Shown here: in pieces, positions 9,893 through 64,000 of the stretch
Position numbering within the stretch: position 1 is the first letter of the stretch
Layout: every line of letters begins with the position of its first letter
Assembly (NCBI GenBank): GCA_964565825.1
Contig: CAZMGK010000001.1
Location: forward strand, 2,052 to 66,051
Source: an uncultured Candidatus Saccharibacteria bacterium
Lineage (GTDB): Bacteria; Patescibacteriota; Minisyncoccia; Phycocordibacterales; UBA9973
Direction: 5' to 3'
DNA: 64,000 nt
Made by a program: the position numbers and the translations under genes
Notes under the pieces: generated by a model
What the model was told of the DNA's origin: nothing
The model's input: only the letters and a program-made list of their open reading frames with translations
The model's database searches: none

Positions 9893-9930
9893 CAGGTTTA
9901 AGGTGAAAGGTTACAGGGAATAGAAAATAC

Positions 9931-9974
9931 AAAAGCGGAGCGCCCGAAGGGCGCTCCGCTTTTGTATTTGTATT
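9931..9974. terminator. Bidirectional rho-independent terminator (GCGGAGCGCCC-gaag-GGCGCTCCGC + TTTTGTATTTGTATT) between the convergent DsbA-like gene and rpoD.
   Basis: 11-bp GC stem, GAAG loop, T-rich tail. The reverse complement also gives a stem plus U-tract. Confidence 0.7.
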
Positions 9975-22743: not shown

Positions 22744-22832
22744 TTTATTCGTTCTCTGTTAGCGCAGCTTCGACAGTTACTGCTTCTCCTAGTATAGCGA
22801 AGTTTTGAAAAGAGTCAAAGGAGGGTGGGGAT

Positions 22833-22950
22833 AAAATACGTGCTTACTATTTTAGAAAACACGAGTCAAGCTCTCATCTCAGTGTGCATATTAAAAAATA
22901 CAAATATGCACACTTCCGATAGTTTTTCTAAAATAGTAAGCACGTATTTT
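22833..22950. repeat. Nested inverted repeats: outer arms of about 28 nt (AAAATACGTGCTTACTATTTTAGAAAAC / GTTTTTCTAAAATAGTAAGCACGTATTTT) enclose an inner palindrome GTGTGCATATT...AATATGCACAC.
   Basis: Read directly. Lies in a roughly 380-bp insert between rpsP and the KH gene, which are normally adjacent. Confidence 0.5.
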
Positions 22951-23078
22951 ATCATGGTGAAAGAAAGGAAAAATTACGACAGTCTTCATAAAACCTCGTG
23001 GTGCTATTTTATTGAGAGAAGGAGTAAAGAGAAAAACACAAGTCTAGGAACTCGAGCAAATTCAACTCTTGTTTGAAC

Positions 23079-30164: not shown

Positions 30165-31013
30165 TTATTTTTTTGGATATTCTTGAGTAAAGGGATTATA
30201 TCGAGAAATAACCTCAAATCGCACAGGTGTTGTTTCAAATACTTTTTGCCAAACAATAAAGATTTGTTTTTTCTCTCTTGGGTTGAGTTTAGGAATAACG
30301 GTCTTCCCTACTTGTACCACATTTCCTTCTGCATCATACGCAAGTACATAGACGTCTATTTTGGAAATAGAAAATACTTGAGATGCATTACGAAGCATTG
30401 CAGAAAATCGAGGTTTGATATCATCGGTATTAAATAATTGTTCTGAAACTTCAATAACCATGTCATCATACCGGGTATCTGTTTTATGCCAAGACACAGC
30501 TTCTTGTAATTCAAATGTTGTATAGGTCGGGATGGTGTTGCCTACTGGAATCTGCTGCTCGAACACAACCATGCCTTTATTGGGTTCGATAAAAGTACTT
30601 CCGGATTTTTCAACAATCAGTACTCTGTTTTGATCATATAATTTAAATTTATACGCTACTTCTTTTACTCCAGCTTGAAAATTTTGATTTTCAATATATG
30701 CAACTGCATTATAAAAACCAGGAACTATTTCGTAAGACCTTTGCCATTTGATGACTGGATCTTGAGTAAACTCTTTACACTGTAAAGAACATTCTCCTCC
30801 ACAATCTACTCCGAATTCTGTGCCGTTTTTTTTAGTATCAAAACAAGTAGGTTTTTTATTTACAAGAGGAATTAAAATAACCACAAAAACACCCAACAGT
30901 ATAATTCCCATTATAGAAAGTATGTTAAATTGTCTTTGTGATGCCCAGCTCATGTAGAGTACTATACCACAAGTCAGACCAGAACTCACACAGTACTTTT
31001 TCGGAGCGCGCAT
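30165..31013 (-). CDS. Hypothetical membrane-anchored protein with a Cys-rich segment; the start is uncertain (an alternative start lies at the internal MSWASQ...).
   Basis: TM helix IMGIILLGVFVVILIPLV; no recognisable domain. Confidence 0.45.
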   Translation of the reverse strand: MRAPKKYCVSSGLTCGIVLYMSWASQRQFNILSIMGIILLGVFVVILIPLVNKKPTCFDTKKNGTEFGVDCGGECSLQCKEFTQDPVIKWQRSYEIVPGFYNAVAYIENQNFQAGVKEVAYKFKLYDQNRVLIVEKSGSTFIEPNKGMVVFEQQIPVGNTIPTYTTFELQEAVSWHKTDTRYDDMVIEVSEQLFNTDDIKPRFSAMLRNASQVFSISKIDVYVLAYDAEGNVVQVGKTVIPKLNPREKKQIFIVWQKVFETTPVRFEVISRYNPFTQEYPKK

Positions 31014-31041
31014 ATTTTTCTCAAAAAATATGCGCGCTCCG
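31002..31041. promoter_or_regulatory. Perfect 18-nt-arm palindrome CGGAGCGCGCATATTTTT-ctca-AAAAATATGCGCGCTCCG spanning the annotated start codon, in the divergent region before efp.
   Basis: Read directly; candidate operator. Confidence 0.4.
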
Positions 31042-31137
31042 AACCCCCAGCGACTTACGAACGTATCGAGAAAAGTACTTTGACAGTTCTCGCTTATCTA
31101 TTGCATTTATCTTCAAAATAAATTACTCTATACACAT

Positions 31138-31719: not shown

Positions 31720-31762
31720 GTATCTAGTGAGTAGTTAATAGAAAATGCAGAGTACAAAATAC

Positions 31763-31800
31763 AGGAGCGTGCCCTTCGGGCACGCTCCTGTATTTGTATT
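31763..31800 (+). terminator. efp terminator: GGAGCGTGCCC-ttcg-GGCACGCTCC + TGTATTTGTATT.
   Basis: GC stem, UUCG loop, T-rich tail. Near-identical to the terminator at 9931-9974. Confidence 0.7.
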
Positions 31801-32440: not shown

Positions 32441-32545
32441 ACCCGGAAGTAGATTTTGGTAAGGTGACACATACGAGTCACGCGCTATACGCATTACCAA
32501 AACTCACTTCCGGGAAATCAAAAATACCTTCTTTCAAAGGTATTT
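32441..32545. other. Two hairpins just downstream of the rnpB 3' end: an imperfect 22-nt-arm nested IR (ACCCGGAAGTAGATTTTGGTAA...TTACCAAAACTCACTTCCGGGA) and AAAAATACCTT-ctttcaa-AAGGTATTTTT.
   Basis: Complementarity read directly; plausible rnpB terminator or processing structures. Confidence 0.4.
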
Positions 32546-32990
32546 TTCATGATGTCACACGATAAGCCGAATTCTGTCCCCCGCACTCACTATACAAATT
32601 TAGAAACTAATATAGTGAGTGCGGGAGGATACACATTTATCTGGGATAGATATTACTATCTACCTCAAGCGATTCTTCCTCGATATTTCTATCTCAGACG
32701 CGATCTTGCACACAAGTACGGATTTAGCCGTTTCATTCTCTCCTTACAAAGAGATTATTCCTTACAATTACTTGTCGGGAACCCTAGCCTTTCGGCATTG
32801 GCGTCACTGTTCGCACCGCGCACTTACATACGATGGGCGTTACCCACTACTCTTGAGGGAGGCCTTGCCTCCCTCAGTGTGTTCGGACTTTCCTCCCCCA
32901 CACCTATATTTTTATTGCTGATGAATCAGCGTTTTATAGAAACAATAAAAACATGGGTGTGGGGGCGTGTATCTGTGCAACACAACCACT
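32545..32990 (-). ncRNA. rnpB: RNase P RNA (bacterial), with an unusually long AU-rich P3 closed by the CCCCCACACC/GGTGTGGGGG stem.
   Basis: Minus-strand RNA carries the P4 5' strand GGGAGGAAAGUCCGAAC (reverse complement of 32881-32897), the P8-like UGGGUAACGCCCA, and the P4 3' strand GACAGAAUUCGGCUUAUCG (reverse complement of 32559-32577), about 400 nt apart in the canonical order. P2 ACACG/CGUGU. The overlapping plus-strand ORFs 32549..33028 and 32619..32921 are spurious. Confidence 0.75.
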
Positions 32991-33059
32991 ATACTCTATT
33001 TGAGAAAATAAAAAAACCCGCATGCTAGATGCGGGTTTTGTACTTAGGATACACAGCAA

Positions 33060-40582: not shown

Positions 40583-41413
40583 TTAAAAATCAAAATATAA
40601 TACCGATTTTACAGTCGCCGTGTATTCTGGAGTACATCCTTGGAAACACACGCTAGACTCAACTTCAACTGCATACCGATACGGCACATCCGTCACATCC
40701 GTGAATGATAGAAATCGAAAATATTCTGATGGTGCTGTTGTTCCTGAATAGAGCGAAGCGTCAAACGCAATCAAACCGTTCTCATTATACAACATTGGGT
40801 CCGTAGCATACGCAGCATATCCGATGGTTCCAGAACCAGAAAAAGGGTTGAAATAATAATCGCACTGATTCCCTGATCCGCACGCTGTATCAATAAGAGC
40901 CAGAAAATCACTTGCACTATCACCGTCGGCGACTGCTTCTTTTTGAACAAATTTTACAAACTCAACTCCCTCTTCGGCGAGATACTGGGCTGTTAACTTT
41001 CTTTTAGTCAGATGAATATCTTGCATAGAGCTCGTACTGACCTGTGACAAGGCGGTAAACGCAATCAAGAAAATAAACAATGCAACGAGTGTTTCGATGA
41101 GGGTAAACCCCGACACCAATTTCAGGTGATTGTTCGCACAAGTAGGTGTATATTTATTCTGAGAAAAATTAAGAAAACCAAAAACGTGTTTCTTACTAAT
41201 TGGTGTGGGGGTAAACCCCGACACCAATTTCAGGTGATTGTTCGCACAAGTAGGTGTATATTTATTCTGAGAAAAATTAAGAAAACCAAAAACGTGTTTC
41301 TTACTAATTGGTGTGGGGGTAAACCCGCCTACAAATCTCACTTTATTTTTAGTTTCCACGTGCATGTTACTTTTTTGTATATTTTTTTGTAGAAAACGAA
41401 TAAATGTATTCAT
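40583..41413 (-). CDS. Type IV pilin whose 5' end carries tandem 108-bp (36-aa) modules, each recreating the prepilin cleavage site (…LKLVSG|FTPTPISKKHVFGFLNFSQNKYTPTCANNH…) before the authentic VSG|FTLIETLVALF.
   Basis: Prepilin motif SGFTLIETLVALFIFLIAF. The upstream in-frame repeats come from the DNA repeats at 41096-41330. The true translation start is uncertain. Confidence 0.75.
   Translation of the reverse strand: MNTFIRFLQKNIQKSNMHVETKNKVRFVGGFTPTPISKKHVFGFLNFSQNKYTPTCANNHLKLVSGFTPTPISKKHVFGFLNFSQNKYTPTCANNHLKLVSGFTLIETLVALFIFLIAFTALSQVSTSSMQDIHLTKRKLTAQYLAEEGVEFVKFVQKEAVADGDSASDFLALIDTACGSGNQCDYYFNPFSGSGTIGYAAYATDPMLYNENGLIAFDASLYSGTTAPSEYFRFLSFTDVTDVPYRYAVEVESSVCFQGCTPEYTATVKSVLYFDF
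41096..41330 (-). repeat. 2.1 tandem copies of a 108-bp unit, each beginning with the palindrome GGTGTGGGGG-taaa-CCCCGACACC.
   Basis: GGGTAAACCCCGACACCAAT occurs at 41101 and 41209, with a partial copy at 41317. The units are identical. Confidence 0.85.
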
Positions 41414-43751: not shown

Positions 43752-44432
43752 TTAAGGATTACATTCTGTTTCTTGTTGTTGCAGATGATACGTTGTGCTT
43801 TGCCCAGAAAAACCAGTCGAATCGATACAAAAAGCAATATTAAAGTCTGTTTTTAATGGAGAAGAAACACCCCAGAGCGTTCCCGTAGGATGATTGTCAT
43901 GGCACACGGATAAAAGTCGATACCCAGCTGTTTCATAATCTGTTGAATACCATGGAAATGGATTATTGGAAAGTCTCGCTGCTTCTGCCAAAAAAGCTTC
44001 AACTTCAACACTATCGCACATATAGCTGTAGCTATTATTTTCTTGGTAATAAATATATGATTGTTTTTTAATTCCATCAAGAGCGGCTTTGATGGCTGCG
44101 TCACGTGCCCTATCTCGAGCATTCGTTAAACGAGGAATAATAATACCTGCAAGAATACCAATAATTGCAATCACAATGAGGAGCTCGATGAGGGTAAACC
44201 CCGACACCAATCGCAACAGACGCTGACGCCCTTTTTTGGTATGATGAGTCATCAGACGAGTAAGAAAACCGAATGGGTTATTTTTTAGGATTGGTGTGGG
44301 GGTAAACCCCGACATCAATCGCAACAGACGCTGACGCCCTTTTTTGGTATGATGAGTCATCAGACGAGTAAGAAAACCGAATGGGTTATTTTTTAGGATT
44401 GGTGTGGGGGTAAACCCCGACACCAATTTCAT
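43752..44432 (-). CDS. Type IV pilin with tandem 36-aa N-terminal modules (MKLVSG|FTPTPILKNNPFGFLTRLMTHHTKKGRQRLLRL x2) before the authentic VSG|FTLIELLIVIAIIG. The ORF track extends it to 44639; the ATG at 44432 (MKLVSG) is the more likely start.
   Basis: Prepilin motif SGFTLIELLIVIAIIGILAG. The modules are homologous to those of 40583..41413 and have the same 108-bp period. Confidence 0.75.
   Translation of the reverse strand: MKLVSGFTPTPILKNNPFGFLTRLMTHHTKKGRQRLLRLMSGFTPTPILKNNPFGFLTRLMTHHTKKGRQRLLRLVSGFTLIELLIVIAIIGILAGIIIPRLTNARDRARDAAIKAALDGIKKQSYIYYQENNSYSYMCDSVEVEAFLAEAARLSNNPFPWYSTDYETAGYRLLSVCHDNHPTGTLWGVSSPLKTDFNIAFCIDSTGFSGQSTTYHLQQQETECNP
44187..44432 (-). repeat. Three copies, at a 108-bp period, of GGGTAAACCCCGACACCAAT... 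carrying the GGTGTGGGGG-taaa-CCCCGACACC palindrome.
   Basis: Copies begin at 44192, 44300 and 44408. Units are near-identical (one has ACATC for ACACC). Confidence 0.85.
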
Positions 44433-51928: not shown

Positions 51929-52008
51929 ATAAACAGTATATCATACTGTAGCGTATAGGTAATAGCCTGCCTGCCGGCAAAGGCAGGGTTTTAGGGAGCA
52001 GAGACATA

Positions 52009-52060
52009 CAAGAGAGGCACATCCTTTGGATGTGCCTCTCTTGTATGTGAATTTGTATTT
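52009..52060. terminator. Hairpin CAAGAGAGGCACATCC-tttg-GATGTGCCTCTCTTG + TATGTGAATTTGTATTTT between smc and rnc.
   Basis: Member of the TTGTAT-tail hairpin family. Confidence 0.5.
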
Positions 52061-53969: not shown

Positions 53970-54025
53970 AGAATATATATACCATATCTAGTTTAAATTT
54001 TCAAGTTTTTAGTGGATAGTGAATA

Positions 54026-54066
54026 CAAGGAGCGGATGCCGTAGGCACTCGCTCCTTGTATTATTG
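54026..54066 (-). terminator. Hairpin GGAGCG-gatgccgtaggcact-CGCTCC + TTGTATTATTG after the 54106 gene.
   Basis: TTGTAT-tail family member. Confidence 0.45.
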
Positions 54067-57980: not shown

Positions 57981-58040
57981 TTGTAAAATAATTTTGTTTG
58001 TACTTACTGTACACTAAAATGGGAAAAAGTCCAGACATAC

Positions 58041-58127
58041 AAAGAGGCGCACCCTTCGGGTGCGCCTCTTTGTATATCCTCCCTCTCCTGGACAGGAGAG
58101 GGTTGGGGTGAGGTTGTTTATTTTTTT
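58041..58127 (-). terminator. Two tandem hairpins after the 58118 gene: AGAGGCGCACCC-ttcg-GGTGCGCCTCT + TTGTATAT, and CCCTCTCCTG-gac-AGGAGAGGG + TTGGGGTGAGGTTGTTTATTTTTTT.
   Basis: The first belongs to the UUCG/TTGTAT family. The second shares about 45 nt with an insertion inside murD (63437-63480). Confidence 0.6.
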
Positions 58128-62540: not shown

Positions 62541-63903
62541 CTATTTTAATTCCTTAATAATCTTTTCAAATTGATCACCGCGGTCGTATTCATTTTTAAA
62601 CATACCAAAAGACGTAAAGCCTGGAGAAAATAAAACAATACTTCCTTTTGTTGCACGAGTGAGGGCTTGCTTAACTGCATCTTTGAGTGTCTTTGAGTTG
62701 GTATAGGTACCTTGTTGTAATACAGAAGTGAGTTCATTAGTTCCTGTACCAGGAAGCATTACTACTTCACCTGCGTATTTGGAAATAAGTTTTGGTAAGT
62801 TTCCAAGTGGAATATGTTTAGTTGTACCACCAGAAATCAGTACGATATGTTTGTCAGGGAAAGACTGTAATGCAACAGAGAGTGCAGATGGTGTTGTTGA
62901 GCACGTGTCATTATAGATAGAAATACCTTTATAATTCCGAACAAATGAAAGCCGTCCTTCAACTCCTTTGAAACTCTCAAATCCTTTTTTGATATCAACA
63001 CCCTTTAATCCATATGCACGGAGTGCTTCATACGCACACGCAGCGTTTTCTCTGTTATGTTCACCTGGAATAAGGAGATGCCAATTTTTTGGGATATTAT
63101 TCACCTCAGCTTTAACAAGAGTTCCTCTTGGTTTGAGTTTTTTTATTTTTGTATACACAGAGTCACCAGCAACACAGACGTCACCTTTTTTCTGATAGCT
63201 GACGATATGAGACTTGTCGAGGAAATATGCATCCATTGAACCTTTGTAATAATTCAAGTGATCCTCCATGAAATTTGTAAATACAGATATAGTCGGAGAA
63301 ATTTTTGCATCACCAAATCCTTGCAACTGCCAAGATGAAAGCTCGAGCACGAGCGTGTCGCCACTTTTAATAGTTTTCAAAAGTGGAAGCACTGCAGTCC
63401 CTTTGATATTACCACCGAGGAACACACGGTGTTTCTCCCTCTCCTGCCGAGGTGTGGGTTGGGGTGAGGTAGTGTATTTCTTAAGTGTGTGATAGATGAG
63501 CATCGTCGTTGTTGTCTTTCCACGTGTTCCGGTCACACCAATAACTGTGACGTCTTTCGGCGCAAGCTTCAAAAAAAGTGATTCATCCATTTCTACTGGA
63601 ATACCTTTTTTTTGTGCGTGTGCAATATACACGGAGTCGAGTGGAGTACCCTGTCCTTTTAAAACAAAGTCACAATCCTCGAAATCAGCTAGATCATGCC
63701 CACCTAGATGATAGGTGATGTTTTTATAGTTTTTAAGTTGAGCTAACGCTTCTGCCAATTCTTTTTTGGTTTTGAGATCAGTCACGAGTACCTGCGCACC
63801 ACAATCAGAAAAAAACTTGATACATTCAATACGCTTCCCTAAAAGTCCGAGCCCAAGGACGGTTATTTTCTTACCTTCAAAATAGTCTGCGTATCCTTTC
63901 ATG
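62541..63903 (-). CDS. murD: UDP-N-acetylmuramoylalanine--D-glutamate ligase MurD, with a 12-aa insertion after the P-loop. The ORF track extends it to 63995, but the likely start is MKGYADYFEGKKITVLGLG at 63903.
   Basis: KKITVLGLGLLGKR N-terminus; GVTGTRGKTTTT P-loop; insertion TTSPQPTPRQERE encoded by a repeat element. Confidence 0.85.
63437..63480. repeat. 45-nt element CCCTCTCCTG...GTTGGGGTGAGGT.GT.TATTT shared with the intergenic hairpin at 58081-58125; here it is inserted in-frame in murD.
   Basis: CCCTCTCCTG and GTTGGGGTGAGGT are identical in both places. Confidence 0.45.
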
Positions 63904-63913
63904 CACAGAGTAT

Positions 63914-63989
63914 ACCCCGACACCCATATTTTTACAATTTGTTTAAAGTAGTAGGATATTTGTAATAAAAACATATAGGTGTGGGGGTA
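63914..63989. repeat. GC-clamp hairpin element CCCCGACACC-CATATTTTTA...AATAAAAACAT-GGTGTGGGGG upstream of murD; paralogous to the rnpB P3 hairpin and to the pilin-associated palindrome.
   Basis: Shared termini CACC(C/T)ATATTTTTA and AATAAAAACAT..GGTGTGGGGG with 32895-32965. Confidence 0.5.
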
Positions 63990-64000
63990 TATCATAAAAA

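Follow-up and report, generated by a model that had tools for sequence, protein, structure and literature searches.

A mobile palindromic element at helix P3 of a diverged RNase P RNA gene from the candidate phyla radiation

Can an RNase P RNA gene (rnpB) lie in a stretch of bacterial DNA for which Rfam reports nothing, and what would have hidden it there? This question is raised by a 64,000-nucleotide stretch of contig CAZMGK010000001.1 (the 64-kb window in the following, meaning the whole stretch of DNA that was analysed), which returned zero families, tRNA included, when it was compared as a whole with Rfam at gathering thresholds. A first-pass annotation made from the letters of the window had proposed an unannotated rnpB on the minus strand beneath two artefactual open reading frames (ORFs), with a GC-clamped hairpin of a mobile or duplicating kind accommodated in its helix P3. 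The reading arrived at here, which as a whole is very probable, is that minus-strand positions 32552-32983 are rnpB and that P3 is a complete copy of a mobile palindromic element.

Identity of the RNase P RNA gene

Running the RNase P RNA model RF00010 in E-value mode, the check that the first-pass annotation had suggested, gave a match across the full model to positions 32547-32938 of the minus strand with 54.4 bits (E 9e-16), against a gathering score of 100 bits, and the alignment mis-threaded the 5' end of the gene because of the long P3 hairpin. Six rnpB orthologues without the clamp element of this hairpin scored 100.6-112.2 bits, with P1, P2, and P3 aligned correctly. Since insert-free orthologues reach 100 bits, the shortfall of the window gene is due to its insertions.

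Covariation led to the same identification. Six sequences entered the first comparison and the joint fold, while eleven rnpB orthologues were collected in total. Compensatory changes were found at 27 of the 77 pairs predicted in the joint fold, which recovered P4, P5, P8, P9, P10/11, P12, P13, P14, P15, P16/17, and P18 as well as a hairpin at the P19 position, and the canonical helices P1, P2, P5, P8-P15, and P18 were supported by covariation. The pairs of the P4 pseudoknot, AAG(U)CCGAA (32882-32890) with UUCGGCUU (32564-32571), were all invariant in 6/6 orthologues. The gene is therefore a type A-like RNase P RNA of a host from the candidate phyla radiation (CPR), as had been claimed, running from the P1 5' strand to the P1 3' strand, with putative ends placed by the pairing. 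Taken on its own it is a diverged but otherwise ordinary member of a known family; the novelty lies in helices built from a mobile element and in the loss of annotation that follows.

The host was placed by elongation factor P (EF-P), which groups the window with Paceibacteria/Nomurabacteria-type Patescibacteria (CPR); the proteins flanking rnpB in the window showed weak matches to curated families. The nearest species-level genomes by EF-P identity were L003 (97%) and L004 (90%), and their DNA identity to the window of about 68-78% makes them different species. Synteny with efp, followed through 80 Paceibacteria genomes, recovered rnpB in the two closest relatives only, and one further candidate, L126, was dropped, having its P4 strands 687 nt apart and no plausible P1-P3 upstream. 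The rnpB locus, P3 element included, is identical in L001 and L002, contigs of two different sequencing runs, which rules out an assembly artefact. The source runs of this organism are SRR12762287 and SRR12762285.

Read along the minus strand, on which all rnpB features lie, the locus opens with the upstream gene's terminator (33013-33039) and a TATAGT box, followed by GUGUUGCAC-A-GAUACAC-G and the 71-nt hairpin; after these come AGGAAAGUCCGAAC, a series of hairpins, AGAUAAAU-GUGUAUC, a 50-nt hairpin, ACAGAAUUCGGCUUAUC-GUGUGACAU, and a terminator. The motifs named by the first-pass annotation were all present in the order given, with the P4 5'-region motif GGGGGAGGAAAGUCCGAAC at 32899-32881, the P8 motif UGGGUAACGCCCA at 32846-32834, and the P4 3'-region motif GACAGAAUUCGGCUUAUCG at 32578-32560; the P4 strands turned out to be about 320 nt apart rather than 400. 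P1 is formed by GUGUUGCAC (32975-32983) and GUGUGACAU (32552-32560), and is replaced in the outgroups L151 and L160 by the wholly different pair GUUUGUAU/AUACAAAC. P2 pairs GAUACAC (32967-32973) with GUGUAUC (32628-32634), and in constructs with the variable hairpins removed it was 97.6% paired with compensatory changes at 4/7 pairs. The pairing originally named as P2, ACACG/CGUGU, had to be given up, being no better than shuffled controls, and its CGUGU is part of the P1 3' strand.

The remaining parts of the gene follow the canonical plan. P8 (UGGG-UAA-CGCCCA, 32834-32846) aligned to P8 of RF00010 and paired in the joint fold, P18 with its GUAA loop (32644-32664) likewise aligned to RF00010 and showed compensatory changes at several pairs, and a native P16/17 hairpin, UCUGAGAUAgaaaUAUCGAGGA, occupies 32677-32698. 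The terminator, a hairpin with a U run at 32520-32547, carries compensatory changes between orthologues (ACCUUU/AAGGU, ACCAUU/AUGGU, ACCUUC/GAGGGU). A putative promoter is marked by the -10-like box TATAGT (32988-32993), read by eye 5 nt upstream of P1 and matched by similar boxes in the orthologues, while a scan upstream of rnpB for the sigma-70 consensus found no full match. Compared with RF00010 in general, the window gene has the P4 pseudoknot with its universal strands GAGGAAAGUCC...ACAGAAnnCGGCUUA and P1-P3, P5, P7-P15, and P18 in canonical order; it differs in its 71-nt P3, which keeps the score below the cutoff, in an additional hairpin with a GNRA cap at position P5.1, in an expanded hairpin at the P19 position, and in small P13 and P14.

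Two of these differences were followed through the orthologues. A hairpin between P5 and P7, at the P5.1 position that is otherwise listed as a type-B feature, was found in all 11 rnpB orthologues, covarying and mostly GNRA-capped, and in the window (about 32851-32876) it is expanded to a 10-bp stem, CUGAGGGAGGcaagGCCUCCCUCAAG. The expanded hairpin at the P19 position (32578-32627, inverted repeat I10), between the P2 3' and P4 3' strands, is absent from L003 and L083 and short in L004. It is about 70% identical to the long P3 hairpins of L208 (925-973) and L211 (879-926), with the loop region ATTTGTATA in common, so that one hairpin type occupies two rnpB positions in different lineages; no copy of this type was found outside rnpB in the 1.8 Mb searched.

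A score of merely 54.4 bits, two expanded hairpins (P3 and the P19 position) together with a P13 loop enlarged relative to L003, and a view of the genome limited to 64 kb are what one would also meet if this rnpB were a pseudogene inactivated by insertion, with a second rnpB or a protein-only RNase P elsewhere in the genome. Such a pseudogene is very unlikely, given that the universally conserved P4 and core sequences are intact with every helix paired, that the conserved -10-like box and terminator have been kept, and that members of the element family described below sit in the rnpB of four other lineages, in one of them with a compensatory change in the clamp. A single rnpB is, moreover, the norm in small CPR genomes (PMC8172020).

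The P3 hairpin and its element family

What, then, is the long hairpin at P3? Its arms CCCCCACACC...GGUGUGGGGG (32965-32895, minus strand) form the 10-bp GC stem around 51 nt that the first-pass annotation had described, and the whole is a complete 71-nt GC-clamped palindromic element with a 10-bp clamp, an AU-rich stem, and an internal mini-hairpin, GCUGAU/AUCAGC. Alone it folds at -35.3 kcal/mol (z -8.5). Its family membership was assayed with R1, a covariance model built from 24 metagenome copies only, the window P3 not being among them. R1 matched the window P3 on the RNA-sense strand over model positions 1-70 of 70 with 77.8 bits (E 1.2e-15), its own compensated mini-hairpin included, and on the opposite strand with 60.7 bits; the P3 of L004, a diverged member, scored 43.2 bits, and the P19-position hairpin of the window 26.5 bits. 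The P3 hairpin is a member of the family. Weaker R1 matches at 31001-31042, 49583-41, and 22357-405 were rejected as generic AT-stem palindromes with other clamps.

Allowing one mismatch at most, the window holds 13 matches to the clamp motif where 1.09 would be expected by chance, and paired clamps stand at four places (P3, 63915-63987, 41108-41319, and 44199-44410), making six element copies in all. The first-pass annotation had the same stem-flank architecture recurring upstream of murD and at pilin genes, which held for both sites as far as architecture goes, while the pilin units have the clamp, a 4-nt spacer, and the architecture in common with P3 and not the interior. The murD copy is 73 nt long (63915-63987, plus strand), lies 12 nt upstream of the murD start codon, is matched by R1 with 43.7 bits (E 1e-7), and has about 20 nt in common with the P3 hairpin at each end. 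The filled site in the window reads ...TTTTTTATGA-TATA-[73 nt]-TATA-CTCTGTGCATGAAAGG, and the corresponding site on L204, from the L003 genome with a MurD that is 87% identical, is empty and reads ...TTTTCTATGA-TATA-CTCTGTGCATGAAAGG, with the flanks conserved on both sides. The filled and the empty site, with the duplicated TATA, define a 4-bp target-site duplication. The public call of murD itself (62541-63995, minus strand) is 484 aa long, the ORF having been extended across the element that precedes the gene; judging by the family match and by the orthologues, translation really begins at the ATG at 63902, giving 453 aa.

Public metagenomes were then scanned with the terminus common to the murD and P3 copies, CCCCSACACCYATRTTTTTA. 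This terminus was found in at least 120 metagenome stretches, many times as inverted pairs 30-115 nt apart, and at least 6-7 loci were counted on single metagenome contigs. By length the copies form classes of about 35-44, 67-73, 105-149, and 320 nt, and they end in terminal inverted repeats in which CCCCCACACCYATATTTTTAT pairs with ATAAAAATATRGGTGTGGGGG. In the class of about 70 nt the conserved interior with its mini-hairpin was 92.4% paired with compensatory changes at 5/6 pairs, a result reached by 0/500 shuffles. An exact 4-nt direct repeat flanks 32 of 54 unique metagenome copies; shifted control positions gave 1 such case, as did the reverse complement. The family is mobile, as the first-pass annotation had suspected of the P3 hairpin, and the case for a mobile element accommodated in P3 was strengthened by the R1 score, by the 4-bp duplications and the filled and empty murD site, and by the short native P3 of 4/6 relatives in the first comparison.

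No matches were obtained when the terminus pattern was searched in 2.9 million viral contigs, nor for the junction between element and P4 in the viral contigs, and among the metagenome loci no family member was found inside an rRNA gene, copies lying only in the spacer downstream of 16S. Several copies abut a perfect DnaA box, with the duplication falling within the box (TGTGGATAA|element|ATAA), at L128 1025-1173, L136 10178-10311, L140 8576-8709, L182 456-776, and L199 6862-6993, and one of them contains the ORF described next. The element may thus tend to insert close to replication origins, or a single orthologous site may be occupied by different size classes.

The members of about 320 nt contain an ORF of 84-87 aa with a GIY-YIG domain (PF01541, E 4e-16), for which the Pfam domain was matched and NCBIfam models were not, and the stop codon of this ORF sits within the right terminal repeat. 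Copies with a GIY-YIG ORF and matching termini were found in L182, L162, L179, and L212, and in L182, L162, and L212 the gene is flanked by the family repeat on both sides. In L212 the ORF finishes in ...AGUCUUCAAUAA, whose counterpart in the 70-nt class is ...GUCUGCAAUAA, and judged from these ends the short members look like internal-deletion derivatives of the ORF-bearing ones. The family behaves like miniature inverted-repeat transposable elements (MITEs). The nuclease is the candidate mobilising enzyme, a role that is conjecture at this stage.

The copies at the pilin genes are of a different make. Two tandem 104-nt clamp units with TAAA between them lie at 41108-41319 and again at 44199-44410 (both plus strand), each pair being read in frame as part of the leader of a minus-strand prepilin gene. 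These two genes (43752-44431 and 40583-41413) thereby each hold two stop-free in-frame units of 108 bp (36 codons), whose insertion point is GGG TTT A|CC within the G|FTLIE motif, so that the product reads MKLVSG-FT[36 aa]x2-LIELL, while adjacent pilin paralogues are uninterrupted and a prepilin peptidase gene lies between the two. These inserts, 72 residues long, stand upstream of the last G|FTLIE site and would be removed with the leader by prepilin peptidase. In another organism, L163 (9719-9762 and 10342-10385), 44-nt copies with a 4-nt duplication (48 nt) occupy the same pilin codon position.

Members in other rnpB genes and the loss of annotation

How general is the presence of this family in rnpB? 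A native P3 of 5-10 bp is found in L003 (where it reads CUCUGccuuaaaaCAGAG), L083, L151, L160, L210, L212, and L213, and family members occupy P3 in the window and in L004. In the clamp of the L004 member, CCCCUACGCC/GGCGUGGGGG, one A-U pair of the consensus has become G-C through a compensatory change, which fits selection on the helix. In other lineages it is the P15-17 arm that holds family members, always bounded by GAUCGYG and AGAAUCGCUUGAG, at the site where the window has its native P16/17 hairpin: L212 has a copy of 314 nt whose GIY-YIG ORF is intact and lies on the rnpB strand, L151 and L160 have ORF-less copies of about 125 nt, and L083 and L211 have a hairpin of about 26 nt that keeps GGUGUGGRGG and is probably a remnant. 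An unrelated short hairpin stands there in the window, L003, L004, L208, L210, and L213. The rnpB of L212 spans 481-1280, its intact 87-aa GIY-YIG gene lies at 887-1150 between family termini, and Rfam detects the 3' part of this rnpB only, with 44.4 bits.

With these copies in view it can be asked whether the long P3 might instead be a native, lineage-specific expansion, its look-alikes being terminators or protein-binding motifs that are similar by function and not by transposition. The clamp hairpins in rnpB do lack a target-site duplication, a conserved internal structure is also expected of a functional motif, and CPR helix extensions are described by Lui et al. 2021 (PMC8172020) with no mention of repeats in the sections drawn on here. 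Functional convergence of this kind is nevertheless the least probable explanation considered and was already largely refuted by the filled and empty murD site with its duplicated TATA, in agreement with 4-nt direct repeats at 32/54 copies against 1 in the controls. It would, moreover, have to account for a nuclease ORF in the long members of which the short ones appear to be deletion derivatives, for copies in coding sequence, intergenic DNA, and two different rnpB helices, and for the short P3 hairpins of the closest relatives.

The presence of a family member separates the rnpB genes of this clade that Rfam misses from those that it detects. The five rnpB genes with a family member scored 87.5, 83.8, 57.0, 54.4, and 44.4 bits against RF00010, all below 100, and the six without one were all at or above it. 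The insert drops the score below the cutoff, so that rnpB goes unannotated and antisense ORFs are called instead; the element family is the cause of the annotation loss in this clade. In the window these ORFs are one of 159 aa (32549-33028, plus strand), which belongs to no NCBIfam family and is called as a gene in public assemblies, and one of 100 aa (32619-32921, plus strand), which lies entirely within rnpB on the opposite strand. The database matches of the 159-aa ORF were itself and one weak one, an antisense ORF over rnpB in L083, and the longest antisense ORFs over rnpB are 78 aa in L003 and 50 aa in L004, so that the 159-aa ORF is not conserved. Both ORFs are artefacts, as the first-pass annotation had stated.

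Several observations weigh against a mobile element at P3 of a working rnpB and have to be set beside the evidence above. The P3 copy is flanked by tcct and cgtg with no 4-nt repeat, and the same is true of all copies inside rnpB, each of which takes the place of the native hairpin exactly at its base, which leaves more than one possible route of entry. Since L004 is not the sister lineage of the window, at least two events are called for, each of them either a gain or a loss. The pilin units, similar to the P3 copy in clamp, spacer, and architecture alone, went undetected by R1. No GIY-YIG homologue was found within the 64-kb window, and the nearest solved structures of the GIY-YIG protein are the UPF0213 proteins 1zg2 and 1ywl, of unassigned function, so that a role in mobility is conjectural. 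Lastly, the insert may be a site at which the RNA is processed, or it may impair the RNA.

The missing repeats can be accommodated in more than one way. Copies in rnpB may have been trimmed after insertion under selection for helix geometry, they may have arrived by homing or gene conversion at conserved rnpB sequence, or a structure-specific nuclease may have swapped one hairpin for another. The window P3 copy is much nearer to the family consensus than that of L004, which suggests a more recent arrival or re-homogenisation. A wider idea, offered tentatively and not as the likelier outcome, is that these are previously undescribed GIY-YIG-associated palindromic elements of CPR that spread in two ways, by insertion with a 4-bp duplication and by exact hairpin replacement at the tips of helices in structured RNAs (P3 and P15-17 of rnpB), where the second mode might operate through an Slx1/UPF0213-like structure-specific nuclease or through homing to conserved RNA-gene sequence.

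How would the ribozyme put up with a mobile element as its P3? The conserved core (P1, P2, P4, P5, P7-P15, and P18) is intact and the short native P3 stem-loop has been replaced by the complete 71-nt element, whose ends pair with each other, first as the 10-bp GC clamp and then as an AU-rich stem of about 10 bp. Such a self-closing insert would give a closed helix at the P3 position, stacked on P2 and pointing off the active site, with the junctions unchanged. P2 and P3 are coaxially stacked at the edge of the catalytic domain (PMC2858038), and because of this a longer P3 may simply extend into solvent; the insert may be tolerated because its self-closed helix sits exactly at P3 and away from the active site. 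The in-frame copies of the two prepilin genes would be explained along similar lines. The RNA is presumably active with the insert, and the insert presumably retained in the mature RNA.

A rather unlikely alternative is that the P3 element is an intervening sequence (IVS), transcribed and then excised, for instance by RNase III at the stem of about 21 bp, leaving two RNA fragments held together by P1 and P2 as in IVS-bearing 23S rRNAs. The P3 stem is indeed long and nearly perfect, with the folding energy given above, and the 314-nt ORF-bearing insert in the rnpB of L212 is hard to imagine as a permanent part of a ribozyme. Short insertions other than introns are also numerous in CPR rRNA genes, where they sit at stem-loop tops or bases, and IVS-type processing has been discussed for them (PMC11270868). 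The compensatory clamp change of L004 fits selection on a helix, yet it would suit a retained helix and a processing substrate alike. Extensions of P3 are tolerated in other RNase P RNAs, which speaks for retention, and an element kept in the mature RNA as its P3 helix remains the preferred reading.

Further palindromes were noted. A second palindromic family, CCCGGAAGTAGATTTTGGTAA...TTACCAAAAnTnACTTCCGGG, unrelated to the first, has a copy next to rnpB at 32442-32514 and another on L207 (about 1955-2025), just past the right end of the window; the rnpB-adjacent copy is present in L003 and not in L083, and the murD-upstream copy is absent from the L003 genome. Many intergenic perfect palindromes, among them those at 9925-9969, 31757-31795, 52004-52048, 54022-54062, and 58034-58078, have GC-rich centres and the common outer arms (A)ATACAA...TTGTAT(T); they resemble terminators that act in both directions and whose outer motif is conserved. 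The longest inverted repeat of the window, with 30-nt perfect arms GATAAAATACGTGCTTACTATTTTAGAAAA and 64 nt between them, lies at 22830-22953.

Related systems and implications

The phenomenon seen at this locus has a precedent in CPR. In 10/35 circular CPR genomes rnpB was found only below Rfam cutoffs (Lui, Nielsen and Arkin 2021, PMC8172020), and the sections of that paper drawn on here report large helix extensions, P15 included, that required manual refolding. These sections describe the same combination of sub-cutoff rnpB and extended helices, with neither repeats nor mobile elements named as the source of the extensions, whereas the extension described here is a member of a transposing family and accounts quantitatively for the lost score.

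Repeats within rnpB are likewise not new. STRR repeats occur within the rnpB of heterocyst-forming cyanobacteria (Vioque 1997, as cited in PMC2858038), where, like the element described here, a genome-wide repeat lies in a peripheral helix and is tolerated by the ribozyme. STRRs differ in being short tandem heptamer-type repeats and not self-pairing palindromes with target-site duplications and nuclease-encoding relatives. The helix concerned is reportedly P12.

As a mobile element the family resembles MITEs in its terminal inverted repeats, small size, many copies, 4-bp duplication, and longer ORF-bearing relatives with the same ends, and differs from them in that its ORF encodes a GIY-YIG nuclease of 84-87 aa rather than a recognised transposase and in that its rnpB copies lack the duplication. 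A close likeness is offered by the Ssn nucleases and the SRM/NTS hairpin repeats (Chenal et al. 2025, PMC11893778), in which a hairpin repeat scattered through the genome also stands on either side of a small GIY-YIG gene with a single domain. Ssn proteins belong to the cd10448 clade, and SRMs form hairpins of about 30 nt, with no mention of a target-site duplication in the parts of that paper drawn on here, whereas the protein reported here is nearest to UPF0213/YhbQ-type structures and its units are 40-320 nt long with inverted termini and 4-bp duplications. REP elements with their RAYT transposases are a conceptual parallel only.

Insertion into coding sequence recalls the Rickettsia palindromic elements (RPEs), palindromic repeats of about 100-150 bp found between genes and in frame inside protein-coding genes (PMC1779305). 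The likeness is one of behaviour, as two prepilin genes are read through in-frame 36-codon units; host phylum and sequence are different, and the present family is found in helices of a catalytic RNA as well and includes ORF-bearing members. CPR rRNA genes, finally, contain short (<200 bp) uncharacterised inserts as well as non-intron inserts encoding GIY-YIG proteins at the tops or bases of stem-loops (PMC11270868); these concern 16S and 23S rRNA only, with RNase P, palindromes, and inverted repeats unmentioned, and a link between them and the present family is put forward as a hypothesis. Literature searches in an incomplete library, combining MITEs or GIY-YIG with CPR, and palindromic elements or MITEs with rnpB, returned no description of the family. 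The novelty is that a transposing palindromic element, some relatives of which encode a nuclease, makes up P3 and, in related rnpB genes, the P15-17 arm, and that its presence hides rnpB from annotation.

For annotation, this offers a concrete and testable cause of a known problem, the routine 'absence' of RNase P RNA from annotated CPR genomes. Within this clade the element sorts the genes, those with it being missed (5/5) and those without it detected (6/6), and masking the element, or modelling it, would recover rnpB genes and purge spurious proteins from the databases. It also defines a widespread mobile-element family, with a candidate nuclease, a conserved interior, and in-frame insertions in prepilin leaders, for a phylum in which little is known of mobile elements. 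If the two modes of spread were true, such a class might explain why CPR RNase P RNAs have 'extended helices', and it might perhaps also explain the non-intron and GIY-YIG inserts of CPR rRNA. The window gene is in any case a clear natural example of selfish DNA supplying a helix of an essential ribozyme, which bears on the origin and turnover of peripheral RNA helices.

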